In this document: one piece after another, positions 1,525-25,700 of the stretch | Layout of the letters: the number at the start of each line of letters is the position of its first letter | How positions within the stretch are numbered: the stretch's first letter is position 1 | From: Pyrolobus fumarii 1A | GTDB taxonomy: Archaea; Thermoproteota; Thermoprotei_A; Sulfolobales; Pyrodictiaceae | Length of the DNA stretch: 32,000 nt | Direction: 5' to 3' | Assembly (NCBI RefSeq): GCF_000223395.1 | Contig: NC_015931.1 | Span: 720,001 to 752,000, forward strand | Notes under the pieces: model-generated | The model's input: the letters and a program-made list of their open reading frames with translations, nothing else | The model's database searches: none | What the model was told of the DNA's origin: nothing | Program-made: the position numbers and the translations under genes

Positions 1525-4500
1525 TCATGATTGATGACGGCGTAGGTGTAACGCTACGGACGCGGCCAGAGTCGCGCCAGTTACGCCTATTATAGCTTGG
1601 AGCATCGACGTTTGTGTAGTCAATGTGTCCTCTACTTTACTGAGTCTGCCCTTCACGTTTGTCACCTCACTCTTCAAGTAGTTTACATCGGCTTCGATCT
1701 TTGACGTCTTGTCTATAACCTGGTCTATTTTGCCGGTGACTCGCTCCTCCATAGCCGATATACTACCCTTGACATCCGCCACAGCTTTGCCGATGCTATC
1801 CTCTACATACTTCTCAATGTGTGCTCGTGCCGTTTCTATCTCGCTTGCTAGCTTCTCTCCTACCTTCTTGACAGTCTCGCTGACACTGCTTATACTACTG
1901 GCGAGTTTCGCCTGTACCTCGTTCAGCGCGGTGATGATCGCATCCTGGCTCTCTGCAATCCTTCCAGATATCTCGTTTGCCACCGCCTCTAGTTTCTGCT
2001 CTACACGAGTCTCTATCTCGCTCAGCTTGTTGTTCAGCTTGTTTTCAAGCTCCGTTGCGACACTCGCAGCTAGCTTGTCAACAGTGACGCTTTGTATAGT
2101 GATGCCCTCGCCAGCCACATACTCGCCTTTATACACTGCCCTCACGGTAATGGTGTATGTCCCGGGTTCTACACCAGCGAGTTTGACTAGGTACGCTCCT
2201 TTCCCTAGACGCTCTACATGCACAGTAGGCTTGACCGGTCCTTCGACGCTCACGTCTAGTTCTGCATCAACCGGCTTATCATCTAGCGAGACTTGCACCG
2301 GGACAACTACAGTATCCTTAGCGTTGACGAGAACAGCGCCAATGCTTATCTTCAACGGCTTAGCTAGTCTAACTGCGATCCTCTCCGTGAATAGCTCCTG
2401 GATTAGCTCGAGATAGTTGTTTGCGAGGCTCGGGTAGTACATTACTATCGGCGACGGCAGCCTGGGCATCACGTATACTACATGGACGCCCGGCTTGTCA
2501 TAGCTCACACTGAACTCTATACTATCGTTCAACGAGGTTACAACCAGGTCGCCATCTATGTACACCTCGACGGGTGTCGCTGGCATAGTAAGTAGCTGGG
2601 CAGCCCATACCTTAACATTCAGCCTGCCATCCTCGTGGTGGGCATATAGGCCTAGAGCGGATGCCGTCATGAGCACATAGCCGGACTTGTGCACAACACC
2701 TACCAGCATGTTGCCGGTCAGCTTGCCTCCAAGTTTTACTTGCTCGCCTGGCTTCGCTATCGTAATTGGCTTCAGAGCCGTAAGCTGGATGCCGAAGTTA
2801 CGCTCGACAGCCACAGATGCAAGCTTGACACCGTCGCCCGCGACGACAAGGCTCTCTGTGTAACCAGGCTTGTAAATCGGCATCTTGCCCTCGACGTAAA
2901 GTGGCATGTATAGCACGGAGGCGTCAAATAACTTGAAGAACCTTGACAGCGTAACATTTGGCGCCGGCTTGGGCTCTGGTAGCGGCGCTGGCAGTGATAG
3001 TAGCGGGTCGCCCAGAAGCGTCAACTGGAGCACTGTTGTATGACCAAGGGTCACTGTCATACCACCCATACTGAGCTCCGGATATAGCTGCGATAGCGTA
3101 TCATTGAGGTAGAGGACTGTTCCCTTCCAGACAGCCTCGCCTAGCGTCCTAGCTCCCGAGGCCCACGCCTTAGCCAGGTAACCGTGGAGGAGTATAGCGC
3201 CACCTATGTTTGCACTCACCAGACCATTCTTTACGGCGAATATTGGGATCTTGAACCACTCGAAGGCGGACCTTGCGTGACCAACGTATGCTACTCCACC
3301 CCATCCAGCTGCGATAGCCCACCCTACACTCGGCGGGCTAAACCATGGCGACGGGACTAGGTCGAAGTCCCATGCGCCATTCATACAGGCAACGCTCGTT
3401 ACCACACCTATCTTTGTCCTCTTAGCGCTCTTCTCTAGCAGGTCGGTTGCGTTCACTAACTCCTCCCAAGTTATCATATTCACAGTCTCATTGTACACTA
3501 GGTCTGCCCATGAGTTGCCACTGCCATGCGCAATCACTGTTATCCATGCTGGCTGCTCCTTCTCGAGGAAGAGGCTACGGAAGTTCTCTCTAGTGTAGTT
3601 GCCGAGAACCCTAGTCATGAACTGAGGCTCTAGGTTTCTGAAGATGCCTAGCTTTACGCTGTATGTCGAGATGCCAGCCTCTCCTACGGGTGGCGCCATA
3701 GCGAACGGGTATCCTCCTATGACGAGTATGGTGGGGCTCCGCTGGTACTCCTCGTACAGCTTTACCTTCTCGAAGTACATCTGGATTAGGTATGGGTTGC
3801 TAAACGGCAGCCTCCCGACGTAGACATCTGGGTTGAAGTCGAGGTCGAGATCAGCATAGAGGTAGTCGGTTGGTATCCACCCGTTGTACGGGTCTACGAA
3901 GAAGTATTCTATGATGCTGAGGTAGTAGTAGCTCGGCGGTATTTCGGACGCGGAGCCCACTATGAGCACATGGGTTACTCCGTATGCCTGCTTCGCAAGC
4001 GCGATGAAGCCCCTTACCTGGGCAGCCAGAGTGAAATTATAGTATTGCATGATCTCTGGTGGCGGCGGGTACACTGGCATTAGTATGCCGGGTAGCGGTA
4101 TCTGCGGGAATAGAGGTGGCGCCTTTGTCACGTTCTCGAGGCTTGCAGCCACCACCTTAACGTTTGGATGGACGCTCTTCTCCAGCTCGGCTACCAGCTT
4201 CGCAATTTCCATGGTAGGGGCGATTACGAGCAGGACTGGCGAAGTACTACTCTCACTCTGCATCTCTACCTTCTCGGCGTACACCTTGACGCGCAGCATC
4301 GACGTGTATACTACCTTACCATCGTGATGTTGAACCGGGTATATGTAGATGTGTAGTACCTTCTTGCCGTTGAGTTTCAATGCGAAGTACGTGTAGTAGA
4401 CTCCTGGTGTCACTCGCTCATAGAAGCTCTCTACAGTGCCACGTACCAGAGGCTTGTCCGTATCGAGGCGCAGGGGAGAAGGCATAGGCTCGACGGGCTT

Positions 4501-4881
4501 AACCAGCTTAAGCTCTTGGATTGATAACGGCTCGACGACTACTACCGGGCGCGTGTCCAGTGGTAACTCGAACACCATGTGTATCGCTGGGAGTCTCGGG
4601 CCTCCAGGCAACCCGACATACACTACCTTGCCTGTGCTCGCGTGTAGCTCTAGCTTACTCCAGTTACCATCTTCATCGACATTGAGTCCTATGTAGATAG
4701 TCTTCTCGTACAGAAGGGTCGAGTCGCGCGGGACCACGGGGTTCGGCATTGCTACGCCAAGCGACGCTAGGGTCTCCGCGGGGCTCGAGGCTGCAGCTAA
4801 TATCGGCGTTACTGCGAGCAACACTACGAGCGTAATAATAGCAGCTAGTACTCTACGATGACCAGACATACTTTCATCCAT
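1525..4881 (-). CDS. Large cell-surface protein: signal/TM, peptidase C25 (gingipain)-like domain, beta-sandwich domains, long coiled-coil stalk, C-terminal TM anchor
   Basis: The ORF is open to 4941, but MDESMSGHRRVLAAIITLVVLLAV (ATG 4881, or 4869) gives a normal signal and avoids overlap with xpd. C25-like motifs are HVLIVGSASEIPPSYYY, DYLYADLDLDFNPDVYVGRLP, VIAHGSGNSW and SVACMNGAWD. The last ~190 aa are heptad/hendecad-patterned, followed by AIIGVTGATLAASVALHLRRHQS. Confidence 0.7.
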   Translation of the reverse strand: MDESMSGHRRVLAAIITLVVLLAVTPILAAASSPAETLASLGVAMPNPVVPRDSTLLYEKTIYIGLNVDEDGNWSKLELHASTGKVVYVGLPGGPRLPAIHMVFELPLDTRPVVVVEPLSIQELKLVKPVEPMPSPLRLDTDKPLVRGTVESFYERVTPGVYYTYFALKLNGKKVLHIYIYPVQHHDGKVVYTSMLRVKVYAEKVEMQSESSTSPVLLVIAPTMEIAKLVAELEKSVHPNVKVVAASLENVTKAPPLFPQIPLPGILMPVYPPPPEIMQYYNFTLAAQVRGFIALAKQAYGVTHVLIVGSASEIPPSYYYLSIIEYFFVDPYNGWIPTDYLYADLDLDFNPDVYVGRLPFSNPYLIQMYFEKVKLYEEYQRSPTILVIGGYPFAMAPPVGEAGISTYSVKLGIFRNLEPQFMTRVLGNYTRENFRSLFLEKEQPAWITVIAHGSGNSWADLVYNETVNMITWEELVNATDLLEKSAKRTKIGVVTSVACMNGAWDFDLVPSPWFSPPSVGWAIAAGWGGVAYVGHARSAFEWFKIPIFAVKNGLVSANIGGAILLHGYLAKAWASGARTLGEAVWKGTVLYLNDTLSQLYPELSMGGMTVTLGHTTVLQLTLLGDPLLSLPAPLPEPKPAPNVTLSRFFKLFDASVLYMPLYVEGKMPIYKPGYTESLVVAGDGVKLASVAVERNFGIQLTALKPITIAKPGEQVKLGGKLTGNMLVGVVHKSGYVLMTASALGLYAHHEDGRLNVKVWAAQLLTMPATPVEVYIDGDLVVTSLNDSIEFSVSYDKPGVHVVYVMPRLPSPIVMYYPSLANNYLELIQELFTERIAVRLAKPLKISIGAVLVNAKDTVVVPVQVSLDDKPVDAELDVSVEGPVKPTVHVERLGKGAYLVKLAGVEPGTYTITVRAVYKGEYVAGEGITIQSVTVDKLAASVATELENKLNNKLSEIETRVEQKLEAVANEISGRIAESQDAIITALNEVQAKLASSISSVSETVKKVGEKLASEIETARAHIEKYVEDSIGKAVADVKGSISAMEERVTGKIDQVIDKTSKIEADVNYLKSEVTNVKGRLSKVEDTLTTQTSMLQAIIGVTGATLAASVALHLRRHQS

Positions 4882-4900
4882 ATCGGAGGGGCTCTGTAAC

Positions 4901-4908
4901 TTGTATAA
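4901..4908 (-). promoter_or_regulatory. TATA-box candidate (TTATACAA on the minus strand) for the surface-protein gene, inside the 3' end of xpd
   Basis: The + strand ttgtataa at 4901-4908 lies 20-27 nt upstream of ATG 4881. This spacing fits a leaderless crenarchaeal transcript. Confidence 0.35.
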
Positions 4909-4913
4909 CAGCG

Positions 4914-6815
4914 TTACTGGATGTGCACACTCGTATCCCACAATCTCCTAACGGCCACGCGCAGAGCTTCACGTAACTCTTCTATGCTTTTGACAACCCT
5001 GTGGTATTTCAACCTGAGTAGCTCGCGGATACGAGGATTGAGGTACCTACGGTCCCCGAGAATGTATATTGCGCGATCCTCGTCGCTACGTATTGCTCTA
5101 CCCAGCGCCTGCCTGGCCTTCACGTAAGCCGTGACAGTGTATACGTAGTAACTGGCCTGAACCGGACCAACCTTCTCTGCAAGCTTCTCTATAACAGCCT
5201 TTGTGTAGTCATCGGGTTGCGGGTACGGGACGCCAGCCAGCATAACAGCGCTTATCAAACTCCTACCGTCACGGGTCAACTCTACTCCTTCCACGAGTTT
5301 CCCTCCAGCCACAGCATTCACTACCACCACTCTATGCTTCTCTAGGAGTTTCTCCACCTCCTTTCTCAAAGCATCAATGTTTGTATCCCTCTCTTCGCTA
5401 ACCATCACCACGTTACTAGAGAGCCTCGATACAATCTCTTTCATGAACTCGTAGCTCGGATAGACTACTAGTATGGCGCCCCTCAGTTCCTCCGCCAGCG
5501 TCTTCACGTACGAGGCGTACATATTGTACATCTCGCCGCTGCGTTCCCCGTAGCGTGACGTCAACTCGAGCGTCACAATCGTGTAGTACTTGCCGGATAT
5601 GTTGGATCCGTAGAGCAGCTCGGTGTCTATACTTACGCTACGCCTCTCGACGCAAAGAACGTCCCTGATGAACCTCTCGGGTGGCAGCGTCCCGCTCATC
5701 AGTATCACAGCCTTTGCGTTCATCAACGGTTCTCTGGTCACAACACAGTGGTCTACGGGCAGCGCTACTAGTTCTGCCTCGCCACTCTTACCCCTAGTGA
5801 CGAACACCTCTACACCCTCGAGAGACACTAGAGACGCGAAGACGGCAACCCTCGTCGCCGCGACACGTATGCGTGCTGCACTCGACGCACCCCCGCCAAG
5901 TGCTTCCCTGAACTTCTCGAGTCGAATCTCGGCAGCTAGGTCTGCTAATGCACCAGGATCCTCAACGGCACGGAGAACGATGGTCTTGTTTATGCGGCGT
6001 AGGCGGCCCTCGGGGGGCGGTTTCAGCTTAGCTAGTATACTGCGGAGTCTGGCAGCGACCGTCCTTCCCCACTCGGAGTCCGGTGCATACCTCTCAACCT
6101 CGGCGGCGAATGCCTCCACGTCGCGCCTCCGCAGCCTCTCCTCCAGTATCGAGCTAACGTCCATCAATGCATGCGCCTCATCCACGACGATGACATAGTC
6201 GCTGTACTCGTGCGGCTCGAACACAGACTCGAAGATGTCACGCTTGAAGACATAAGGGTACGTCGCTACTATGAATTTCACATCATCCACTAGCATCTTG
6301 AGCGCGAAGAATGGACATAGTCCCAGCTTCTCTAACTCCCGTACAGCGGCATACGGGCTAGGAGCGACCCTCCTAACCGCGTTGATTACAGGGCCTTTCA
6401 CATCACCCATCTGGACTAGGTTCTCGTAGTAGGGGCAGACGCCCTTCAAGCGGGCCAAGCGGCAATTCTCCCAGAACTCGTCGGGAGGCGGCGCCTCGCC
6501 ACGCTCCCCGCGCAGCAGAGGGCACATCCTCCTAGCACTATAGAGGAAGACGTAGTCGACACCGAAGCGGCTTAACTCGCGAAGCACCGGCTCTATCTCG
6601 TTACGCGTCCTCACAAGATACAACACGCGCTCTACCCCAGCCAGGAGCAGCCCGTATATCACTGCAGCCGTCTTGCCGAAGCCCGTCGGCGCCCTCAGCA
6701 GTAGAACCTCGCCCCTCTCAACAACCCTCTTTACAACCTCGGCTACCTCGCGCTGCCCTCGGCGGAACCTATCATACGGGAACCTCACGTTCTCTTGCTT
6801 GCCAGCGTTGCTCAC
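4914..6815 (-). CDS. xpd: XPD/Rad3-family 5'-3' DNA helicase with Fe-S cluster domain
   Basis: Walker A LLLRAPTGFGKTA and DEAH box VVDEAHAL. Four Cys lie between them (MCPLL, ENCRLA, VCPYY, LCPFF), as in the XPD 4Fe-4S domain. GTG start is preceded by GGGGAGGGG. Confidence 0.85.
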   Translation of the reverse strand: MSNAGKQENVRFPYDRFRRGQREVAEVVKRVVERGEVLLLRAPTGFGKTAAVIYGLLLAGVERVLYLVRTRNEIEPVLRELSRFGVDYVFLYSARRMCPLLRGERGEAPPPDEFWENCRLARLKGVCPYYENLVQMGDVKGPVINAVRRVAPSPYAAVRELEKLGLCPFFALKMLVDDVKFIVATYPYVFKRDIFESVFEPHEYSDYVIVVDEAHALMDVSSILEERLRRRDVEAFAAEVERYAPDSEWGRTVAARLRSILAKLKPPPEGRLRRINKTIVLRAVEDPGALADLAAEIRLEKFREALGGGASSAARIRVAATRVAVFASLVSLEGVEVFVTRGKSGEAELVALPVDHCVVTREPLMNAKAVILMSGTLPPERFIRDVLCVERRSVSIDTELLYGSNISGKYYTIVTLELTSRYGERSGEMYNMYASYVKTLAEELRGAILVVYPSYEFMKEIVSRLSSNVVMVSEERDTNIDALRKEVEKLLEKHRVVVVNAVAGGKLVEGVELTRDGRSLISAVMLAGVPYPQPDDYTKAVIEKLAEKVGPVQASYYVYTVTAYVKARQALGRAIRSDEDRAIYILGDRRYLNPRIRELLRLKYHRVVKSIEELREALRVAVRRLWDTSVHIQ

Positions 6816-9507: not shown

Positions 9508-10842
9508 GTGCCTAGAGGCGCAGTTATACTTGTTGAGCATCGTGACACCAAGTATAGCATTAACGCTCTTGTGGCGTCGCTTGACGCTGCCCGCGTAGCA
9601 GATGTCATGGTATCTAGGTGGCTTAGCGAGGCGCTTAGCACTCTGACCGGGATCGTCGAACGCTATGAGCGTATAGTTGTCGGCGTTTCTCTCATGACCG
9701 AGCATTTCGTCACAGAGTTTAGCGCTATACGCGAGTTTGTGTCAAAGGCTAGGCGGGTGGCAGGAGAGAAGCTCCTTCTGGTTGCAGGCGGGCCCCACGC
9801 TACTGGCGACCCTCTCGGCACGCTACGGACTGGTTTTGATGCCGTTGTTGTCGGTGAGGGCGAGGTTACACTACCCCTGCTCGTAGAGGCGTGGTTCGAG
9901 GAAGGCTGGGACGGCGTCACTCGCGTTAAGGGCGTCGCATTCCTCGAAGAGGATAGACTCGTGTATACTGGCCACCGGCCCAGGATCAACCTTGACGAGT
10001 ACTGGTCCTTCCCGTGGTGGAGACGCCGCTTCTCACCCATCGAGATAACCAGGGGTTGCCACTGGGGCTGCAGGTACTGCGAAACCTGGTTCATACATGG
10101 TGGTAGGGAGAGACACAGGAGTATAGAGAGTATACTGGAGCACGTGAGGATAATGCTGAAGCATGGATTACGAGATATACGGTTTATCACACCGAACGCG
10201 CTTGGCTATGGGGAGCGTGTAAGGGGAGAGAGATGCCTAGATCTTGTCGGCGACCTGCTTGAGACTATCCACAGAGTCGGTAGCCGCGAGGGCGCACGCA
10301 TATTCTTCGGTAGCTTCCCTAGCGAGGTCCGACCAGAGTACGTTGACGACGAGGCGGCTAGGCTGTTAAAACGCTATGTCGCAAACAAGCGCGTGATTAT
10401 AGGCGCCCAGTCTGGCAGCGAGAGGATACTAAAATTGCTGAATAGGGGACACACGCCAGAGGACGTGCTAAACGCCGTGCATGTGCTAGTGAGGCACGGC
10501 TTCCGCCCCGAGGTGGACTTCATTTTCGGTCTGCCCGGCGAGACTAGAGAAGACATAGAGGCGAGCCTCAACCTGATGAAACAGATTGTCAAGCTTGGTG
10601 GCCGTGTACACGCACACACCTTCATGCCGTTACCAGGGACACCGTTGGAATCAGCACCGGGCGGTAGGATACCACAGTGGCTGCGCCGGGAGATACACAG
10701 GCTAATAGGCTTTGGCGGCCTTTATGGTCAGTGGGAGAAGCAGGAGAAGCTTGCTCAACTGATACACGATTTCTACCGTAAGGGGTTGATACAGGGGCTA
10801 CGCGGCTGGAGCAACGCCATACTAAGGCCCGGCAGTATGTGA
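9508..10842 (+). CDS. B12-binding-domain radical SAM protein
   Basis: ITRGCHWGCRYC is the CxxxCxxC radical SAM cluster motif. The N-terminal LLLVAGGPHATGDP is a Rossmann-like B12-binding-type domain. GTG start. Confidence 0.85.
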   Translation: MPRGAVILVEHRDTKYSINALVASLDAARVADVMVSRWLSEALSTLTGIVERYERIVVGVSLMTEHFVTEFSAIREFVSKARRVAGEKLLLVAGGPHATGDPLGTLRTGFDAVVVGEGEVTLPLLVEAWFEEGWDGVTRVKGVAFLEEDRLVYTGHRPRINLDEYWSFPWWRRRFSPIEITRGCHWGCRYCETWFIHGGRERHRSIESILEHVRIMLKHGLRDIRFITPNALGYGERVRGERCLDLVGDLLETIHRVGSREGARIFFGSFPSEVRPEYVDDEAARLLKRYVANKRVIIGAQSGSERILKLLNRGHTPEDVLNAVHVLVRHGFRPEVDFIFGLPGETREDIEASLNLMKQIVKLGGRVHAHTFMPLPGTPLESAPGGRIPQWLRREIHRLIGFGGLYGQWEKQEKLAQLIHDFYRKGLIQGLRGWSNAILRPGSM

Positions 10843-11058: not shown

Positions 11059-11799
11059 TTATTTCAGTAATAGGCTCGCCCATGGATCCTCTGTTAGATC
11101 GGCGAGTGTCTTTGGTATACGGTTGACTAGTATCTTTGAGATCAGCGCTAGCGCTGTTCCTATGGTGCGGTAGGCTAGACCTCTAAACACTAACGAGTAT
11201 ATCAGCCAGATAGAGCCCACGGCTATGTGTGGGGCTAGCGCCTGAAGCCCCGGAGCTAGCGCATTCATTGATGCTAGGTACGGGCCTATGATTGCCACCG
11301 CCCATGCTGTTAACAACGTCGCTATGAACAGCAGGTGGTCTAGTATGTCTCTACCCGTGTATCCTCTTGGAAACAGGACTCGCTCTAGCCATTTACTGCG
11401 CAGTAGATAGGCGCCCACCACGGCAGCCGTGTAGGCTGGCGCCGCGAAGTAGAGCCCGGTTATTATGTGAGCGTGGTAGCCCATTCCTATGGCTAGCTGA
11501 GGCCAGCTTATGAAGAACTTCTCTAGCTCTGGCGAGATTATGGGCAACGCGTGTGGACGCAGGACGGTATTAGCAGCGTAGATCACTCCCCTAGTAGCAC
11601 CAACTATTATCGCCGTTAATGCTGCAGCGACTATGCCTAGGTATAACAGCCAGGTTACTAGCCACTCGCCAACATCCCTCCTCTTCAACAAGACCCTAAG
11701 GTTTAGCACTAAATCAAACAACGCCACTATCCTTGGCATTACGTGCTCGGAGACCCAACTATACTCGGAACGAGCCCGAGCCTCCACCCCACTCATCAC
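11059..11799 (-). CDS. Integral membrane protein (4-5 TM) with intramembrane His residues; possible b-type cytochrome or quinol-interacting partner of the 14-haem cytochrome
   Basis: Its start overlaps the stop of the upstream cytochrome gene (minus strand reads GTGATG at 11799-11794). TM-embedded His occur in GYHAHIITGLYF, LDHLLFIATLL and APHIAVGSIW. The functional call is inference. Confidence 0.6.
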   Translation of the reverse strand: MMSGVEARARSEYSWVSEHVMPRIVALFDLVLNLRVLLKRRDVGEWLVTWLLYLGIVAAALTAIIVGATRGVIYAANTVLRPHALPIISPELEKFFISWPQLAIGMGYHAHIITGLYFAAPAYTAAVVGAYLLRSKWLERVLFPRGYTGRDILDHLLFIATLLTAWAVAIIGPYLASMNALAPGLQALAPHIAVGSIWLIYSLVFRGLAYRTIGTALALISKILVNRIPKTLADLTEDPWASLLLK

Positions 11800-13076
11800 C
11801 TCTCACCCCCTTCATACACGTAAACAACTCGTGGAGTCTGGACGAGATGCCATTCATAGTGGCACTCGAAACAATTACCATCAGCCTTCTTGACCATCAT
11901 CTCGTGCATGATACCATAGCCGCTTACAAGTGCTGCGTGCATAGCTAGTCCACGCAGAGCGTCACTCTTGAGTCCACCATACTCGTCGTGGCACTTGCCG
12001 CATAGCTCTACATCCGCTGCCGATTTTACAAAGACAGTATGGTTGATTGGATTGGGCTCGTGGCATACGCTACAGTTGTAACTATAAGCCGCTGCATGTA
12101 CAAGGTGTAACCCCACGCTCACTGCTTCACGTATGGTGTCACCATGACAACCCTTACAACCGCGGAGAGCAACCAATGTAACATTCGGTGCCACGAAGCC
12201 TCTATGGCACTTACTACAATCCTGTAACTCCTCATACTTGTCGTGTAGCTTAGTCTTACGGGGGTCGTGGCACTCGACACAAATGTCGATACCAGGTTTC
12301 CAGCCGTGAGGCATGTCGGATAGATGGCAGTCGATGCACACTATTGTCCTATGCTCATACTCCTTACCGTAGTGCTTCTGGTGCCCATCGTTTAGAGGTT
12401 CTGTGTGGCAGGCGAGGCATGGGTTCACAGGTCTATATGTGAAGCCCAGCTTCTCCATCAGCATTCCTACAGCCATGTTGACGCCTCCATAGCTGGTGGC
12501 GTTTGGCGCTAGTTGCGCAGCAGGCACCACGGGGCTCTCAGAGTGACACGCGGTACAGGCTGCGCGTATGGTCTTGACCATATCACCGTGTATCTCAGCC
12601 GCATCGTGACACTTCAAACAGACCTTATTGCGTGGCTTATCCGTGTGGTGACCATGGTACGCATTAACATGACAATCCACGCATTGGACCGGGCGCGCGA
12701 GTCCCATCTTCGCTAGTTCCTCCTCACTAGCCTCTAGGTGTTTCCAGTGGAACTCTCCAGGAACACGGTGACACATTAGACACTCTCCATGCTCCTCAAC
12801 AAGGTGCTCTAACTTGACGTCGCGATAGAAGGGTATGCCTGGAAGTATCTCGCTCTTTACGCCGAAGCCGTGGCACCCGATACACCAGAACGGCCCGGTT
12901 ATGTTCTTAGGATCGAGAACCTTCGTGTCGTGGCAGCCTTCGCTGCAGAGCGACACGCTCTCAAAGTACCCTGGTATTGTAGCCTTCCAGTACCCCCACA
13001 TAGCCACTACAAACACAGCTATTATCAAGATTGTTTTCACAAGTTTCGTAGCAACGCTTGCCGTCATAGCATCCAC
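11796..13076 (-). CDS. Membrane-anchored multihaem cytochrome c (14 haem-binding motifs)
   Basis: N-terminal TM KTILIIAVFVVAMWGYW. There are 13 CxxCH motifs (CIGCH, CLMCH, CVDCH, CLKCH, CTACH, CLACH, CIDCH, CVECH, CSKCH, CKGCH, CSVCH, CGKCH, CFECH) and one CxxxCH (CSEGCH) in 426 aa. GGTG lies upstream of the ATG. Confidence 0.9.
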   Translation of the reverse strand: MDAMTASVATKLVKTILIIAVFVVAMWGYWKATIPGYFESVSLCSEGCHDTKVLDPKNITGPFWCIGCHGFGVKSEILPGIPFYRDVKLEHLVEEHGECLMCHRVPGEFHWKHLEASEEELAKMGLARPVQCVDCHVNAYHGHHTDKPRNKVCLKCHDAAEIHGDMVKTIRAACTACHSESPVVPAAQLAPNATSYGGVNMAVGMLMEKLGFTYRPVNPCLACHTEPLNDGHQKHYGKEYEHRTIVCIDCHLSDMPHGWKPGIDICVECHDPRKTKLHDKYEELQDCSKCHRGFVAPNVTLVALRGCKGCHGDTIREAVSVGLHLVHAAAYSYNCSVCHEPNPINHTVFVKSAADVELCGKCHDEYGGLKSDALRGLAMHAALVSGYGIMHEMMVKKADGNCFECHYEWHLVQTPRVVYVYEGGER

Positions 13077-13160
13077 ACCCTTAGAACTACTTTACTCCAG
13101 TTTGTCTCAGAAAATAATGCTTATACTCAAATTTTTCCATCGTTCTTTAAGTAAGTAGCT

Positions 13161-14891: not shown

Positions 14892-14980
14892 ACACTTCAG
14901 CCATTAAAAATTATGAAAATAGTACATAAAAGTATTTCTATCATGTAGAATGTTTTGTGAGAAAAACGTAACGCGTATGT

Positions 14981-14986
14981 AAAAAA
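14981..14986 (-). terminator. T6 tract downstream of the octahaem cytochrome gene (candidate oligo-T terminator)
   Basis: A6 on the + strand at 14981-14986 (T6 on minus), 36-41 nt past the stop at 15022. It lies within a 130-nt AT-rich spacer. Confidence 0.3.
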
Positions 14987-15021
14987 GAAGTGGGGATGGG
15001 GTTAACCACAATGCCGCTTGT

Positions 15022-17022
15022 TTAGGCTACCCTCCTGACCGCGAACGCGACCATACCGAATGCTAGCGCTAGTAGGGAGGCAAGAGCGTTGGTGCTGCCG
15101 CCCTCCTCGCCAACGTCGACCTTTAGCACCTTAACCGCGCCGTCGGTCTTGACTGGGACGTCGGTTACTAGCGGCTTCACAATCGCCTCCTTAGCCTCGC
15201 TACCCTCAATCTTCTTGACGTACTCCTTGACCTCTGGTAGCTGAGTTATTAGGGTGTTGACTGTCTTCTCAATCTCGCTAACCACCAGCTCCTTCTCGAC
15301 CTTGCTCATGGTGGCAGTCGCGCCAGTTGCGCCAGTCTCACCCTCGAACTGCTCCTTGAGCCATGGCAGTATGTGCTCGATCTCCTCGATTATCTCTGGG
15401 GCCTTCTTGCGGATCGCTGGCCTCTCGTATAGGTCGATTAGCCACTCCTCGATCTTCTCGGCGAAGTGCATTATGCCCTCCCACCAGACGAAGTCTGGGC
15501 CGAAGTGGGCTGCAGACATCTTGGTCGGCCTGTTAGCCATGGCACCGAGGTTCCTCACTATCCACTTGTCCATTGGCGTGAAGAGGCCCTTCTCCTGCAG
15601 CTTCGTTACTATGTCTAGCACGTACTTGTCTCTCATGTAGTCGACTAGTATGATCATCCAGTCGTAGGTCTTTAGCCAGCTGGCAGCATACCTCTTCGTG
15701 TGGCACTGGGCACACATGTCGATAGCGCGCTGCCTCCTAGCCTTCCAGTCGGGCTCCGGATAGACTAGCTTGATCTCCTCGCCGGTTGTCGGGCTCTTGA
15801 AGACTGCTGGCTGTGTGGCAGTGGCGCCTGGGAAGGCTGGGTCTGGTAGGCCTGGCAGCCTTGGTAGTGTGACTAGCCAGCGACCTAGCTTGAACTTGCT
15901 GATGATCGCAACATCGTGGCTGCTCGCGTACTTGACCTCACCTCTCTCGTTGTACACCGCAGCCATGTGGCAGGTTACACAGGTTGGCGCCCTGAAGTCG
16001 CGACCTGGCACCCAGTTGTTGACTGGCTTGTCCCAGTCCCAGTCCTCAGCCTCGCCCCAGAAGATAGCGCCGTGGACGCTCTTGCTCCACTGTTCGTCGT
16101 TCGGGTGGTCTGGGCCAGTGTGGCAGCGGCCACAGGCCTGGTAGGCGCCCTTCCTAGCGATCTTGACGCTGAAGCTGTGGTATGGGTGGCACGCCTCACA
16201 GCTGCCTAGGCTGCCGTCCGGGTTGACGCGACCAATGCCGTGGTTGGTGACGAATGCTGGGTCGAAGATCACCTTGTCTGGCGCCTTACCCTCCTTCATG
16301 TACTTCATTAGCTCGTCTAGGCTCGGGTAGGCGAATGCATCCTTGACGTCTAGCCTTACACCGTGGCAGCCTAGACAGCCCCTGATACCCCAGATGTATA
16401 GCGCCTTGGTAACCCTGTAGTTGTCGATGTCTAGGCCTAGCGGGTTGTAGGGTATGATCGCGTTGGTTGGATCGCCATAGAGTACCTCCTTACCGTACTC
16501 GTTGTCGCCGGTGAACTCGCGGACGATCTCTGGCACCCACTCGGTCACTATGTACTCCTTGGGTAGCTTGAAGTCCTCAGTCCAGCCGAACTGTGCCGCA
16601 ACGATGGTCCAGTATGCTGGGAACTCGGATAGCGCGTAAGCGTGTAGGCCTGCGAAGGCGTGGACGCTCTTCTGGAACTCCTCAGCAATTGATGGGTGGC
16701 AGCGGCCGCACTGCTTGGGAGTCACTACGAGCGTTATGTAGTAGCCATAGTGCTCGAAGACGTCTGGCCTGGTACCGGGCTGGGCTGCGTGACACTCGTA
16801 GCAGCCTACACCCACTATGCGGTGCTTGCTCTTATACCAGTCGTAGACGATGAATGGTGTTGCACGCAGGTGACACTCGACACAGTCCTGCGACTCTTTC
16901 GTCAGCTTCACGCCCGCCAGGTTGATGTAGTCGCCCCACTCGAAGGTCATTGCAGTAGCGATGCCGCTGGCTAGTAGTAGGGCAATGAATAGGGATAGGG
17001 TGGCTAGTGCTACGCGTCTCAT
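15022..17022 (-). CDS. Octahaem cytochrome c of the hydroxylamine oxidoreductase (HAO)-like family, with C-terminal linker/stalk and TM anchor
   Basis: Eight CxxCH motifs: CVECH, CYECH, CGRCH, CLGCH, CEACH, CGRCH, CVTCH, CAQCH. HAO-like context includes CVECH...VYDWYKSKH and AAHFGPDFVWWEG. The ORF is open to GTG 17067, but ATG 17022 gives MRRVALATLSLFIALLLASGIATA. C-terminus is ALASLLALAFGMVAFAVRRVA. Confidence 0.85.
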   Translation of the reverse strand: MRRVALATLSLFIALLLASGIATAMTFEWGDYINLAGVKLTKESQDCVECHLRATPFIVYDWYKSKHRIVGVGCYECHAAQPGTRPDVFEHYGYYITLVVTPKQCGRCHPSIAEEFQKSVHAFAGLHAYALSEFPAYWTIVAAQFGWTEDFKLPKEYIVTEWVPEIVREFTGDNEYGKEVLYGDPTNAIIPYNPLGLDIDNYRVTKALYIWGIRGCLGCHGVRLDVKDAFAYPSLDELMKYMKEGKAPDKVIFDPAFVTNHGIGRVNPDGSLGSCEACHPYHSFSVKIARKGAYQACGRCHTGPDHPNDEQWSKSVHGAIFWGEAEDWDWDKPVNNWVPGRDFRAPTCVTCHMAAVYNERGEVKYASSHDVAIISKFKLGRWLVTLPRLPGLPDPAFPGATATQPAVFKSPTTGEEIKLVYPEPDWKARRQRAIDMCAQCHTKRYAASWLKTYDWMIILVDYMRDKYVLDIVTKLQEKGLFTPMDKWIVRNLGAMANRPTKMSAAHFGPDFVWWEGIMHFAEKIEEWLIDLYERPAIRKKAPEIIEEIEHILPWLKEQFEGETGATGATATMSKVEKELVVSEIEKTVNTLITQLPEVKEYVKKIEGSEAKEAIVKPLVTDVPVKTDGAVKVLKVDVGEEGGSTNALASLLALAFGMVAFAVRRVA

Positions 17023-17077
17023 ACCCCAGACACCCGCCGTCACTTTTCCATGTCTTTGATTGTTCACAATATGCGAC

Positions 17078-17285: not shown

Positions 17286-18044
17286 TCACTTTTTCCTACG
17301 AGAATAGATATAGTCGGCTACCGTGTAGATGGCTAGCGCTGCACCAACAGCCAATGCGACGTTGAGCAGCATTGATGTTAACATTGTATTATTATCTCTA
17401 CCTTCCTCCCTAACGACAACTATGTTTACTGTGGGTGCCGTGTCGGACGTCGTGTATATGTTGATGTCACCTCCTGGTATCTTCTGGCCAGTCTCGTTGT
17501 CGAAAAGCGCTAGCCGTATCTTGAAGAAGTACTGAGCCTCGTGTACACCAGGAGTCGCGTTGAAGTATCGCTCATGGGCTATTATCGATATTTGGCGTGT
17601 AACCGTGTTCTCGTACACAGGCCTTATAGCAGCATGTAAGGCCCCGGATCCTATTACTGCTCCGCCCTCGCCCCACTCCCACATAGACTCTACTGGTTTG
17701 AAGAGTGTTGGGTCTATCCGATATCCTGGGTCTACCACTTGTATTGTGATTATTCCGTCCCAGGGGCCAGTCCAGTTGACATGTACAGTAACGTTGACAA
17801 CTCCTAGTATGTTGGGAGGCCGCAGGTATAGAGTGTCAGGATAGTATATGTCTGCGTATACCTCGATTGTAGTGTTATCCGTCAATCTCTGGTATACTGG
17901 GCCCATGCGCGCATGTAGTATGTGGATTGTTATTTCGCGGCTGTTAGCGAAGCTCGTCATGTACACCAGGGGTATCAGTATCAACAGGATTGCCGAGACC
18001 GCTACTATAGGATGGACGCTGCGCCTAGCCTCCACGGCTATCAC
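17286..18044 (-). CDS. Bitopic surface protein (N-terminal TM, beta-rich sequon-rich ectodomain, C-terminal TM and basic tail); unknown function
   Basis: 252 aa. N-terminal helix is IVAVSAILLILIPLVYM and the C-terminus is LLNVALAVGAALAIYTVADYIYSRRKK. Sequons NTT, NVT, NWT, NAT, NET and NNT are present. The GTGA start/stop overlaps the upstream gene at 18041-18044. Confidence 0.6.
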   Translation of the reverse strand: MIAVEARRSVHPIVAVSAILLILIPLVYMTSFANSREITIHILHARMGPVYQRLTDNTTIEVYADIYYPDTLYLRPPNILGVVNVTVHVNWTGPWDGIITIQVVDPGYRIDPTLFKPVESMWEWGEGGAVIGSGALHAAIRPVYENTVTRQISIIAHERYFNATPGVHEAQYFFKIRLALFDNETGQKIPGGDINIYTTSDTAPTVNIVVVREEGRDNNTMLTSMLLNVALAVGAALAIYTVADYIYSRRKK

Positions 18045-19018
18045 CTCGCAATGTTCTCAAGGTAGTCCATCACGGTGTATATGTCGCCACGCTGGTATAC
18101 CTTGTTGTTGAATACTAGAACAGTGTCAATGTCGCTCCACCTTAGACCGATATAGGCGAATAGTTTGTCAATGCCATTCTTGACGCTGTTGCTCGTCTCG
18201 AAGAACTCTAGCGTAGGGTCTGCGATGACGAATGTCTTTAGAGGCTTGACATATGCTATGCTCACACAATGGTTGTATCCTTCTTTACCAAAGAAGCACA
18301 TGACCCAGGCGTCTCCAAAGCTACCGAGATACTCTAGATAGAGGCTTGTTAGGAGGATAGCCTTGTCCTCGCAGTCGCCAGCCTTGCGTATCAAAGTCTC
18401 AAGCGGTGTTTGTATATAGTTATCGGTCTTCTTTATCTTGAATGCATATACATATTTCTTTCCATTCATGTCTACGTACTTCACGTCACTTATTACTACA
18501 AATGGGTGGTCGGGGCTCGTCTTCACCTCCCTGACCGTGTAGTTATAGAGCATCTCCATGTGTTTCAGCGCCTTTTTGGGGTTGAATAGGGGGACTCCAA
18601 CGACCTCCATTACTATATCTGCAACCCTACCTGGGGTCACGTACTGTCTAACATCCTGCGTGTAGTATGCCCGGGGATATGTTAGCTTGAACAACTCTGT
18701 TATACTCGCATTGAGGTTCTCTAGTATCCTCGTGACGACGAGCGCCTCTTTGAGAGTCTCATTAGCTGTTGTTACCAGCTCTGCGAGCCTCCTTAATCGC
18801 TCGCGCAGCGTCTTTATCTGAAGTAGCAGGGCTGTATTGTTATCCTCTAGTTTTGCGGCACGTTTAGCGAGTAGCGTAAACGTCTCGTTAAGGCTGCTGT
18901 AAGCTTCGAGGAGTTTGTTGTACTTGTTCACTTGTTGAGTATAGAGTGTTGCCCAAACAGCGTTGCTCGCGGCCAGCGCAACTAGCAGGAGGAGCACTAC
19001 ACCGCGCTTGTCTACCAT
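18041..19018 (-). CDS. Membrane-anchored transglutaminase-like (Cys-His-Asp papain-fold) protein with coiled-coil N-terminal region
   Basis: Signal/TM is VVLLLLVALAASNAVWA. A heptad-rich segment follows (LLEAYSSLNETFTLLAKRAAKLEDNNTALLLQIKTLRERLRRLAEL). The TGase-core pattern is AGDCEDKAILLTSLYL ... YNHCVSIAYV ... IADPT. Confidence 0.65.
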   Translation of the reverse strand: MVDKRGVVLLLLVALAASNAVWATLYTQQVNKYNKLLEAYSSLNETFTLLAKRAAKLEDNNTALLLQIKTLRERLRRLAELVTTANETLKEALVVTRILENLNASITELFKLTYPRAYYTQDVRQYVTPGRVADIVMEVVGVPLFNPKKALKHMEMLYNYTVREVKTSPDHPFVVISDVKYVDMNGKKYVYAFKIKKTDNYIQTPLETLIRKAGDCEDKAILLTSLYLEYLGSFGDAWVMCFFGKEGYNHCVSIAYVKPLKTFVIADPTLEFFETSNSVKNGIDKLFAYIGLRWSDIDTVLVFNNKVYQRGDIYTVMDYLENIAR

Positions 19019-22457: not shown

Positions 22458-23559
22458 GGTTAGACACCAGCCAGCAGGCTGTCCTATGCCCTGCTCCCAC
22501 CTCTACTAGCGGAGGCTCTCTAGTCTCACAGGCTGTACGCACCTCTGGATGCTCGTCTAGCGCGACGCATCTCGGTGCAAATCTACAACCCCTCGGGAGG
22601 TTTATCGGGTTCGGCACCTCGCCCTTGATCGGCACCTCACGATACTTCAGTCGGTTGCTCGGATCGGGTTCCGGCACGGCTGCTAGGAGGGCACGCGTGT
22701 ACGGATGACGCGGGTTCCCTATCACCTCGTCAGCTGGTCCCTCCTCCACAATGCGTCCGAGGTACATCACGGCTATCCTATCACAGACGTATCTTGCAGT
22801 AGCGAGATCATGCGTTATGAAGAGGAATGATATACCCATGTCGCGCTGCAAGCTCTTCAACAACTCGAGTATCTCTGCACGTATGCTAACATCGAGCATT
22901 GATACCGGCTCATCCGCCACTATGAACCTAGGATGCAACACAAGCGCTCTTGCTATTGCAACTCTTTGCCTCTGTCCTCCGCTCAGCTGATGCGGATAGC
23001 GGCTCATGTACTCCTCCGGCGGGGTCAATTTTACCGCCTCAAGAGCCTCAATTACGATTTTACGACGCTTACCTGGATCCTTTACACCATGCACGATGAG
23101 CGGCTCCTCTAGTATCTGGCGTATCCTGTACCTCGGGTTGAGGCTACCGTAAGGATCCTGGTGCACTAGCTGCATGTCGCGCCTAACGATCCTCATAGCC
23201 TTTTCCGGTATCCTGACTATATCGACAAACCCGTCGCTGAACACAGCGCCATTCTTTCCACCTAGTAACTTTCGAAGAGCGTCTATAATCTCGTCCCTCG
23301 GCCTGAAGTAAATGTCGCCACTAGTGATCGGCACTAGGCGTAGTATGGCTCTACCCGTTGTGGTTTTACCACAACCACTCTCTCCAACGAGGCAGTAGAA
23401 CTCCGAGCGATGTATCACGAAGCTAACACCGTCAACCGCATGTACAACGCGCGGAGGCCTCCTCTTGACTATCTCCGTTAGACTCCTACGTAACGGGAAG
23501 TACACCTTGAGATTCTTAACTACGAGGAGCCTCTCGCTCCCCGCCACGGTATGCTTCAC
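22441..23559 (-). CDS. ABC transporter ATP-binding protein of the Opp/Dpp/Nik (OppF-like) type
   Basis: Walker A GESGCGKTT, signature LSGGQRQRVAIARAL and Walker B IVADEPVSMLD. The C-terminal extension with NPRHPYTRALL matches the oligopeptide-type NBD tail. Confidence 0.9.
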   Translation of the reverse strand: MKHTVAGSERLLVVKNLKVYFPLRRSLTEIVKRRPPRVVHAVDGVSFVIHRSEFYCLVGESGCGKTTTGRAILRLVPITSGDIYFRPRDEIIDALRKLLGGKNGAVFSDGFVDIVRIPEKAMRIVRRDMQLVHQDPYGSLNPRYRIRQILEEPLIVHGVKDPGKRRKIVIEALEAVKLTPPEEYMSRYPHQLSGGQRQRVAIARALVLHPRFIVADEPVSMLDVSIRAEILELLKSLQRDMGISFLFITHDLATARYVCDRIAVMYLGRIVEEGPADEVIGNPRHPYTRALLAAVPEPDPSNRLKYREVPIKGEVPNPINLPRGCRFAPRCVALDEHPEVRTACETREPPLVEVGAGHRTACWLVSNRAGGS

Positions 23560-23977
23560 GCTCCCCGCTCAACTGCAAGACGCTGAGGGGTATGTACCTC
23601 GCTGTGCAACCCGGCAACGAGAGAATGCTCCTAGCGAGGCTCGTTATCCTATCAGACTCGCCAGCAACCACAAGCAAGTCAATGCAATACTCGTCTAGAT
23701 GTGTATGCATATGCCCACGCACAACATCCATATATTCTTCTACGATCTCACGAAGCTTACTCGTTTCACCCTCTTTCGACCAGACTATTATCACGCCACG
23801 ACAATAATGAGGCTTTGCAAGATGCACATAGTCGTGTATGAATGTCCGTAGCGCCTCAGTTATCAAGCTAGAGCGATCCTTTCCGAGCAGCTTTGCTAGA
23901 GTATCAAGGCTTGCCGCCAAATCAGCTGGTATTGATACTCCGAAACGCCTTCTCCTAGCCTGTTGCGAGGCCAACAC
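23516..23977 (-). CDS. nikR: NikR-type nickel-responsive transcriptional regulator (RHH plus metal-binding ACT-like domain)
   Basis: The N-terminal RFGVSIPADLAASLDTLAKLLGKDRSSLITEALRTFI is a ribbon-helix-helix. The C-terminal RGHMHTHLDEYCIDLLVVAG carries the NikR HxH....C nickel-site pattern. GTG start. Confidence 0.8.
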   Translation of the reverse strand: MLASQQARRRRFGVSIPADLAASLDTLAKLLGKDRSSLITEALRTFIHDYVHLAKPHYCRGVIIVWSKEGETSKLREIVEEYMDVVRGHMHTHLDEYCIDLLVVAGESDRITSLARSILSLPGCTARYIPLSVLQLSGEREAYRGGEREAPRS

Positions 23978-23980
23978 GCT

Positions 23981-25657: not shown

Positions 25658-25700
25658 GCTTACCTCACCCTTGTGCACATCCCTCTTTACCTCCTTATCA

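Follow-up and report, generated by a model that had tools for sequence, protein, structure and literature searches.

How do electrons leave the quinone pool of a hyperthermophilic archaeon and enter a long chain of c-type haems? The link from quinones to outside acceptors (nitrite, Fe(III) oxides, sulfur compounds) is little understood in hyperthermophilic Crenarchaeota, whose multihaem systems have little in common with the Shewanella and Geobacter models. We asked this question at one locus of Pyrolobus fumarii 1A, the 113 °C archaeon, within a stretch of 32,000 nucleotides (NC_015931.1, positions 720,001 to 752,000; from here on, the window). Two minus-strand open reading frames (ORFs) of this window are identical in sequence to Pyrfu_0786 and Pyrfu_0785. 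The first encodes a c-type cytochrome of 426 amino acids (aa) when read from GTG, and of 423 aa in GenBank, where it starts from the ATG at codon 4. The second encodes an integral membrane protein of 246 aa from GTG, or of 245 aa from a nearby ATG in GenBank. Fibrillarin and DUF973 genes nearby are consistent with the archaeal origin of the DNA.

This gene neighborhood has been noticed before. Kashyap and Holden (2021) proposed that Pyrde_0784-0787 of Pyrodictium delaneyi may encode a new multihaem respiratory complex of the membrane, "Mcc", which would receive its electrons from methylmenaquinol, and named Pyrfu_0785-0788 as the homologous cluster (PMC8105010). The four-gene cluster had thus been flagged as a candidate complex; what we add is the CxxxCH site of the cytochrome, the histidine pattern of the small membrane subunit and its status as an orphan family. 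With the probabilities for and against about equal, we propose from sequence comparison that Pyrfu_0786, Pyrfu_0785 and the adjoining gene Pyrfu_0787 may be the conserved core of a module for respiratory electron transfer, restricted to Pyrodictiaceae and a few related hyperthermophilic Thermoproteota, into which quinol electrons would enter at the outer surface of the membrane.

The cytochrome carries 14 conserved haem motifs

Pyrfu_0786 contains 13 CxxCH motifs, which start at residues 65, 99, 132, 153, 174, 220, 247, 266, 287, 307, 335, 359, and 402, and a single CxxxCH motif (CSEGCH, residues 44-49), which is the earliest of the 14 and lies just past an N-terminal helix. All 28 cysteines of the protein fall inside these motifs, at a density of one motif per 30 residues; a motif scan of the protein for CxxCK and CxxxxCH found neither. 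The N-terminal helix is the only hydrophobic one (residues ∼12-31 by hydropathy), the AlphaFold2 (AF2) model places a helix at residues 2-33, and CSEGCH begins 13 residues after this predicted membrane anchor. The earlier note on this DNA had read the protein as a dense haem "wire" with an N-terminal anchor and a first motif of the CxxxCH type, and the motif count and hydropathy bear this out, with haem attachment at the 14 motifs, CSEGCH included, being putative.

Is this arrangement retained in relatives? An alignment with 13 relatives, at identities down to 34-36%, shows each of the 14 motifs to be invariant, C44, C48, and H49 included. Three of the 13 carry an insertion with two extra CxxCH motifs, giving 16 in total, and the cytochrome of L011, a locus from a metagenome-assembled genome (MAG) of Thermoproteota, has 19 CxxCH and 1 CxxxCH, giving 20. 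Irrespective of whether a relative has 14, 16, or 20 motifs, CxxxCH comes first in every one examined; it is present once, near the N terminus, also in the cytochromes of loci L007, L009, L010, and L011. The conservation of CxxxCH in homologues, on which the note had made its interest depend, was thus found in all orthologues examined. That the motif patterns of the two genes are kept across relatives indicates that they are not a product of chance. The variation in haem number (L011, 6296-7939; P0025-P0027), in which the N-terminal CxxxCH region and the 246-aa partner are retained, appears to be an example of a haem wire growing by modules.

These counts correct those in the literature. For P. 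fumarii, Kashyap and Holden gave "11- and 6-heme" cytochromes (PMC8105010), against 13+1 motifs in Pyrfu_0786 and 8 in Pyrfu_0788 by our count; they counted CxxCH only, and neither the CxxxCH site nor the histidines of the small subunit were discussed (PMC8105010). Kletzin et al. (2015) listed Pyrfu_0786 as a singleton cytochrome with 13 CxxCH motifs, modelled on HmcA, and Pyrfu_0788 as an octahaem cytochrome of the HAO family. The published counts of 13, for P. delaneyi and by Kletzin et al. (2015), leave out the CxxxCH site.

Conservation of the cytochrome is highest close to the membrane. Residues 61-110 form its best-conserved stretch, with block conservation of 0.73-0.88 compared to 0.33-0.75 elsewhere in the protein. 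Outside the motifs only 11 histidines are invariant in the family, H257 is additionally present in 10 of the 13 relatives, and the sole conserved methionine falls within a haem motif. By this residue count, which is not a structural assignment, at least two haems would therefore lack a conserved distal histidine from their own chain. In the NrfHA structure, haem 1 of NrfH is high-spin, and a lysine of NrfA ligates haem 4 of NrfH. From this analogy we infer that the shortage of distal histidines in Pyrfu_0786 fits either a high-spin haem at a quinol site or ligands given by the membrane subunit.

Relations of the cytochrome to known families

Which known cytochromes does Pyrfu_0786 resemble? 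The Pfam scan returned generic cytochrome c7, c3, and paired-CXXCH domains. Its best NCBIfam match was HmcA (NF045713; E = 2e-10), at 39.7 bits compared to a cut-off of 400; membership in the HmcA equivalog was rejected on this score, and the homology is at the level of modules. The family profile matched the HmcA structure 2e84 in the PDB over residues 90-341 (E = 2e-7) and NrfH weakly over residues 259-368. PF03264 (NapC/NirT) gave no match at E ≤ 0.1, and TIGR03153 (NrfH) fell below its cut-off (residues 209-253; E = 0.024; 14.7 bits versus 134). By hhalign, residues 147-253 (haems 4-7) aligned with residues 51-185 of Escherichia coli NapC at a probability of 88% (E = 3e-6), and three further haem motifs separate the anchor from this NapC-like module.

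The resemblance to NapC, NrfH, and CymA that the note had pointed out therefore stands in part: the layout of an N-terminal anchor followed by haems is there, but the N-terminal part has no profile match, and the NapC-like module sits in mid-protein. NapC/NirT/NrfH proteins have four (rarely five) haems in ∼130-200 aa. Membership of Pyrfu_0786 in these families was rejected because no profile scored above its cut-off, the module is not next to the anchor, and there are 14 motifs in 426 aa. The AF2 model of the cytochrome was left out of inference because its mean predicted local distance difference test score (pLDDT) was 62 and Foldseek found no match for it.

In all 13 loci the cytochrome gene is followed by the gene for its membrane partner

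All 13 loci with enough sequence (the window, L001, L003-L007, L009-L011, and L015-L017) have the 246-aa gene directly 3′ of the cytochrome gene and in the same orientation. In P. fumarii the two genes meet at ...GGGGGTGAGAGGTGATGAGT, where GTGATG holds both the TGA stop of Pyrfu_0786 and the GTG/ATG start of Pyrfu_0785, so that they overlap by 4 nucleotides (nt) with the GTG start and by 1 nt with the ATG start. A Shine-Dalgarno-like run, GGGGGTGAG, lies 2-10 nt upstream at this junction. The embedded stop codon had been pointed out previously and is plain in the sequence. Translational coupling, which had been claimed with it, applies to the P. fumarii genome but not to the family: the overlap was seen only here and in L003, and the genes of the other loci are separated by 5-80 nt. 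Tight joining was found only for the cytochrome and 246-aa genes, and we infer that these two form a bicistronic unit.

A gene for a large membrane protein (576-631 aa; Pyrfu_0787 in P. fumarii) precedes the cytochrome gene in all loci with enough upstream sequence. The gene for an octahaem cytochrome (Pyrfu_0788) lies further upstream in the Pyrodictiaceae-type loci and in L011. L001 lacks it and has an MFS gene of opposite orientation at that position, and the conserved core is therefore made of three genes, with the octahaem gene frequent and not obligatory. L001 is demonstrably without this gene; the sequence of L010 ends upstream before the position where it would lie.

The membrane partner belongs to an orphan family with four invariant histidines

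What is the 246-aa protein? It has six histidines and no cysteine, and a thiol-redox (CcdA/DsbD-like) role was ruled out on the latter ground. No Pfam or NCBIfam model matched Pyrfu_0785, and Pfam searches at E ≤ 10 were empty for all 14 family members scanned; its family profile had no match among PDB sequences. The AF2 model (mean pLDDT 82; predicted template modelling score [pTM] 0.77) gave only meaningless helical-bundle matches when compared with the PDB by Foldseek (best E value 0.9). An NrfD/PsrC-type identity was dismissed for its wrong size and lack of a profile match, and membership in CcmC/CcmF/CcsA (PF01578) for lack of a profile match and of a WWD motif. By sequence, then, this is an orphan family. 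It is also tiny: 14 clusters were found among 5.8 billion proteins, and an HMMER profile search of 1.84 billion representative proteins gave five matches, namely four true members and P0031, a spurious repetitive protein that was discarded. When 185,579 species were scanned by pattern, with one genome for each, five loci came up; their labels are Pyrodictium delaneyi (two contigs of a single MAG), Hyperthermus sp., Desulfurococcales archaeon, and Thermoproteota archaeon. As judged from these searches, the family is confined to hyperthermophilic Thermoproteota.

Despite this isolation, its sequence is well kept. The protein is 74% identical to its nearest relative, compared to 63% for the cytochrome and 25-35% for the large membrane protein. 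The strings HAH (109-111), DHLL (154-157), and PHI (190-192) were found in Pyrfu_0785, and H109, H111, H155, and H191 are invariant in 16 relatives with identities down to 37%. Also invariant in the 16 sequences are D154, G105, G107, SWPQ (98-101), P82, and A84-L85-P86; H83 is replaced by Asp in one clade (P0029). Conservation peaks at residues 81-120 (0.82-0.98).

Hydropathy and positive-inside bias in the 16 sequences outline four clear transmembrane (TM) cores (46-67, 102-132, 156-177, and 185-205), together with an amphipathic N-terminal helix (15-38) and a short hydrophobic helix (212-226). Residues 39-44, 133-150, and 206-211 are predicted to be cytoplasmic loops; residues 68-101 and 178-184 are predicted to lie outside, the former because of the charge bias across all 16 sequences. 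By this topology, TM3 would carry H109 and H111 at its outer end, TM4 would carry D154-H155 at its inner end, and TM5 would have H191 in its outer third, with H83 in the outer loop. H111, H155, and H191 are within confidently modelled helices, and H109 is at a lower-confidence helix start. Hydropathy, the AF2 helices, and charge bias agree that the invariant histidines are in predicted helices and not in loops.

A di-haem b relay across the membrane is very unlikely

From these histidines the earlier note had suggested bis-His ligation of haem b, as in quinol-oxidising subunits of the NarI/FdnI type. A di-haem b protein of the NarI/FdnI/DsrM type would oxidise quinol and pass the electrons across the membrane to the c-haems. 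The four invariant histidines in predicted helices would suit such a protein, its size and number of helices are about right, and pairings of a membrane b-type with a multihaem c-type cytochrome are common (e.g., CbcL, Hmc, and Dsr). However, no b-cytochrome profile matched any of the 14 members scanned at E ≤ 10, the hhalign probability was 0.2% against E. coli NarI and 0.45% against FdnI, and there was no fold match in the PDB, even though structures of NarI and FdnI have long been solved.

The histidine pattern leads to the same outcome. No helix has two histidines spaced by 10-14 residues. Instead of pairs at matching depths near each membrane face, three of the conserved histidines lie toward the outside and one, H155, toward the inside. 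As the only conserved histidine at the inner face, H155 finds no conserved TM histidine to pair with in the cytochrome anchor, the 576-aa protein, or the anchor of the octahaem cytochrome. A transmembrane relay by two b-haems is therefore very unlikely, and the NarI/FdnI-type reading, which fails on profile, fold, and histidine pattern alike, is the least probable that we weighed.

The remaining histidines would allow one outer-face bis-His site at most, made possibly from H109 or H111 together with H191. Could these histidines bind a single haem b, or some other metal, on the outer side, as the immediate redox partner of the CxxxCH haem? This would be a more specific form of the explanation that we favour. 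Both H109/H111 and H191 are placed in the outer leaflet, at comparable depths, the region is the most conserved of the protein, and the invariant G105 and G107 ahead of H109 would suit close packing of the helix on a cofactor. Against this, H109 and H111 are spaced by two and so face opposite sides of the helix, their estimated depths and that of H191 are several angstroms apart, pLDDT is low at residues 101-110, and there is no precedent among known families in Pfam, PDB sequences, or PDB folds. We regard the single-cofactor version as possible and still rather improbable.

A different role would be that of an assembly or haem-handling factor dedicated to the CxxxCH site, for which NrfEFG and specialised CcsA proteins, with genes beside those of cytochromes that have atypical motifs, would be precedents. 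The strict co-inheritance of the protein with a cytochrome that always bears one CxxxCH would be in keeping with this, as would its CcmC-like size, the conserved outer-face histidines with the invariant tryptophan motif SWPQ in an outer loop, and the fact that P. abyssi and P. delaneyi have a gene for cytochrome c biogenesis upstream of the octahaem gene, at a distance of three genes. Yet neither a match to Cytochrom_C_asm (PF01578) nor a WWD-type motif was found, the single invariant outer-loop tryptophan being that of SWPQ; hhalign against E. coli CcmC gave a probability of 0.3%, the handling of CX3CH and CX4CH is reported for general Ccm systems, and the P. delaneyi orthologue occurs at levels like those of structural subunits in a shallow proteome. 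We hold this role to be quite improbable, only slightly less so than the di-haem reading.

The protein might also be a redox-inert dock or scaffold in the membrane, with structural or proton-related histidines, in which case quinol would be oxidised by the cytochrome alone or by another enzyme. NrfH and CymA manage without an extra membrane subunit, and Pfam, PDB sequence, and fold comparisons revealed no signature of a cofactor-binding family. Four invariant membrane-embedded histidines and an invariant Asp-His pair at 37% identity would be unusual for a passive role, as would the better conservation of this protein relative to the other genes of the cluster. A scaffold is improbable in our judgment, if a little less so than an assembly factor.

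A candidate site of quinol entry at the outer surface

How might the conserved parts work together? In the module that we favour, the N-terminal helix would hold the cytochrome in the membrane with its haem domain facing outward, in the space under the S-layer, which would bring the first haem, on the invariant CxxxCH, to the membrane surface. Haems 1-3, the cytochrome anchor, and the outer-face loop of the 246-aa protein with H109, H111, and H191 would make up the entry site, where electrons from membrane (methyl)menaquinol may enter the haem chain. In function this would be like ImcH, CymA, or NrfH, with a separate small subunit supplying the extra helices and possibly giving one outer-face haem b or axial ligands for c-haems. 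The remaining haems would serve as a wire to a terminal partner, which in P. fumarii and most relatives could be the co-encoded, membrane-tethered, HAO-like octahaem cytochrome; other acceptors are possible. Because there is no inner-face histidine pair, transport across the membrane by a di-haem b is unlikely to be part of the module. The final acceptor would probably be nitrite or hydroxylamine in P. fumarii, a nitrate ammonifier, and Fe(III) oxide in P. delaneyi. As first described, P. fumarii is not an Fe(III) reducer.

Several kinds of evidence support this module. The pairing of the two genes is conserved, CxxxCH always comes first, and conservation is concentrated in the membrane-proximal part of the cytochrome and at the outer face of its orphan partner. 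The CX3CH parallels in ImcH and CymA, the NapC-like module, and the HmcA homology add support by analogy. In P. delaneyi, the same cluster had been proposed as a complex and the 246-aa orthologue was detected. Pyrde_0784-0787 are orthologous and in the same order, encoding the octahaem cytochrome, the large membrane protein, the 13+1-haem cytochrome, and a membrane protein of ∼248 aa; the cytochrome is 54% and the small membrane protein ∼65% identical to those of P. fumarii, and L007 has the same gene order. Cells grown on ferrihydrite had 60-fold more of the octahaem subunit than those grown on nitrate, and the "13-heme" subunit was detected and not quantified (PMC8105010). Pyrde_0787, the 246-aa orthologue, was found in a proteome of only 660 proteins, at intensities like those of Pyrde_0785 and with a log2 fold change of 2.26, which was not significant (PMC8105010, supplementary table).

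A number of observations weigh against the proposal. Within the P. delaneyi cluster, regulation was significant for the octahaem subunit only (PMC8105010). The N-terminal part of the cytochrome, that is, the anchor with the first three haem motifs, has no NapC/NirT, NrfH, or other known match in Pfam, NCBIfam, or the PDB profile search. AF2 confidence is low at residues 76-106 of the 246-aa protein and at residues 33-84 of the cytochrome, which would be their joint site; low-confidence modelling of residues 76-106 is as expected if this segment folds against a partner. NrfH has the motif CxxCHxM, with a methionine after the haem-1 motif, and CSEGCHDTK lacks a methionine at this position. Finally, the intergenic regions of the cluster are AT-rich, with a GC content of 0.32-0.36 overall and of 0.32-0.34 in 14892-15021 and 13077-13160, versus 0.52-0.58 in its genes. 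The octahaem gene has T-rich tracts after its stop codon and a TTTAAATA element ∼20 nt before its start. The AT-rich regions and T-rich tract suggest that the four genes may not be one transcript. A scan for bacterial-type promoters and terminators, a model inapplicable to archaea, gave counts at or below shuffled expectation.

A narrower version of the favoured proposal concerns the small membrane protein itself, which we put forward tentatively as a candidate for a new class of quinol-interacting subunit. H109, H111, and H191, with or without H83, would either hold one haem b or ligate the membrane-proximal c-haems, and together with the cytochrome anchor they would form a quinol site unlike those of NrfH, NrfD, and NarI. 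We think this more doubtful than the module as a whole. If true, a new class of quinol:multihaem-cytochrome site would have arisen in archaea that live at 100 °C or higher and would be reusable with wires of 14, 16, and 20 haems.

The surrounding gene cluster

The features discussed here are listed in Table 1. Pyrfu_0787 had no Pfam or NCBIfam match, and its PDB profile search was empty. In an alignment of the syntenic genes, which evolve fast and share 25-35% identity, a single histidine (H359) is invariant, and it lies outside the membrane segments. Pyrfu_0788 begins with a signal sequence and has a C-terminal membrane helix (15025-15099) as well as a charged helical linker. Among solved structures, PDB 4QO5 is the nearest to it (E = 1e-47), ahead of HAO-like proteins, HAO, and HDH. 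Its sequence makes it a candidate ammonifying nitrite or hydroxylamine reductase of P. fumarii; the P. delaneyi orthologue is the one induced on Fe(III) oxide.

Table 1 Features of the Pyrfu_0785-0788 region, in window coordinates
Feature	Position	Strand	Basis
Pyrfu_0785, integral membrane protein, 246 aa	11059..11799	-	ORF, database identity
H191 codon (PHI string), outer third of TM5 (predicted)	11227..11229	-	alignment, topology
DILDH, residues 151-155, with invariant D154-H155, predicted cytoplasmic end of TM4	11335..11349	-	alignment, topology
Best-conserved stretch of the 246-aa protein, residues 78-123: TVLRPHALPIISPELEKFFISWPQLAIGMGYHAHIITGLYFAAPAY	11431..11568	-	outer loop and outer end of TM3; H83, H109, H111
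Gene junction: Shine-Dalgarno-like run (11802-11810) and GTGATG (11794-11799)	11794..11810	-	sequence
Pyrfu_0786, c-type cytochrome with 14 haem motifs	11796..13076	-	ORF, motif count, database identity
Internal NapC/NirT-like tetrahaem module, mid-protein	12318-12638	-	residues 147-253, hhalign
Membrane-proximal part, residues 35-110: PGYF...CSEGCH...CIGCHGFGVKSEILPGIP...CLMCH	12747..12974	-	conservation by block
CSEGCH, atypical CxxxCH haem motif, membrane-proximal	12930..12947	-	residues 44-49, sequence and alignment
N-terminal hydrophobic helix, predicted uncleaved membrane anchor	12984..13043	-	residues ∼12-31, hydropathy
Pyrfu_0787, polytopic membrane protein, 576 aa, with ∼200-aa non-membrane domain and C-terminal helix	13161..14891	-	ORF, hydropathy
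Pyrfu_0788, HAO-family octahaem cytochrome, 8 CxxCH	15022..17067	-	Pfam, NCBIfam, motif count
Two conserved upstream genes, 325 aa and 252 aa, with 4-nt overlap	17286..19018	-	ORFs, synteny

Upstream of the octahaem gene, the 325-aa/252-aa gene pair is syntenic in L004-L007, L009, and L015. The 325-aa product has a TM helix and a coiled coil, with weak transglutaminase-like or cysteine-protease matches, and orthologues of the 252-aa protein begin with signal-peptide-like N termini. What precedes the pair differs between species: fibrillarin in P. fumarii, a gene for cytochrome c biogenesis in P. abyssi and P. delaneyi. In the two most distant loci, a gene for a rhomboid-family membrane protease directly follows the three-gene core (L001, 8863-10269; L010, 2973-4415), assigned by a Pfam match for L001 and by eye from the N-terminal sequence for L010.

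Three other features of the window were recorded. Just downstream of the cluster, on the opposite strand, is a gene for a radical SAM protein that binds B12 and belongs to TIGR04013, an uncharacterised family (9508-10842, plus strand). A NikR-like regulator gene stands beside a 565-aa ORF that fuses a ZnuA-type metal-binding domain to an ABC-3 permease domain (23516-25678, minus strand), and 1525-4941 (minus strand) encodes a protein of 1138 aa in which a peptidase C25 (gingipain-like) domain occurs together with a long helical region at the C terminus.

Comparison with known systems

The proposed module is conserved in the Pyrodictiaceae and in hyperthermophilic Thermoproteota related to them; P. 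delaneyi expresses it, with the octahaem subunit induced on iron oxide. It offers concrete targets for study: an ImcH-like, membrane-proximal CX3CH haem, too few distal histidines within the cytochrome chain, and an orphan partner that is obligatory and has four invariant histidines. How does it compare with systems that are already known?

The HmcA cytochrome of Desulfovibrio, with 16 haems, is homologous to the central region of Pyrfu_0786. HmcA itself is a soluble subunit of the periplasm and lacks a membrane anchor, and its partners HmcB-F include NrfD-like and NarI-like subunits; these are not found in the Pyrfu cluster. NarI, FdnI, DsrM, and HmcE are like the 246-aa protein in being small polytopic membrane proteins with conserved intramembrane histidines and with genes beside those of their redox partners. 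They are unlike it in that sequence, profile, and fold show no similarity, and the spacing and depth of its histidines do not fit two bis-His haems.

The HAO/c554/cM552 clusters and those of reductive octahaem enzymes of the epsilon-HAO type share with the Pyrfu cluster an HAO-family octahaem cytochrome that is encoded with a membrane protein and an anchored multihaem cytochrome and is possibly linked to the quinone pool. At the level tested, the partner proteins of the Pyrfu cluster show no homology to HaoB, c554, or cM552; the Pyrfu octahaem cytochrome is tethered by its own C-terminal helix, and the octahaem gene is missing from some loci that have the three core genes.

The quinol-oxidising cytochromes, among them ImcH of the Geobacter inner membrane, come closest in layout. 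ImcH homologues have one or more membrane segments with an adjoining CX3CH, after which come 5-9 CX2CH motifs; a membrane-proximal CX3CH also occurs in two CymA homologues from Rhodoferax (PMC6295460). An N-terminal membrane segment, an adjacent CX3CH, and a run of CX2CH motifs are thus common to these proteins and to Pyrfu_0786, which has the ImcH layout. In contrast, its 13 CX2CH motifs are outside the 5-9 of ImcH, it has one helix where ImcH mostly has three, and no ImcH-named model was among its NCBIfam matches at E ≤ 0.1; the likeness to ImcH described here is one of layout. ImcH, CymA, NapC, and NrfH have 4-10 haems compared to 14 in Pyrfu_0786, which in addition has an obligatory separate membrane partner. 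The tetrahaem module of NapC/NirT is detectable in Pyrfu_0786 but does not adjoin the anchor.

By analogy, then, the nearest relatives of the cytochrome in function appear to be quinol-oxidising cytochromes of the ImcH/CymA/NrfH type, whereas by sequence they are HmcA, in its central region, and the NapC-like module. The system is a lineage-restricted variant of a general scheme, and if its small partner is a new quinol-coupling subunit, it would be a fourth solution beside those of the NrfH, NrfD, and cytochrome b types.

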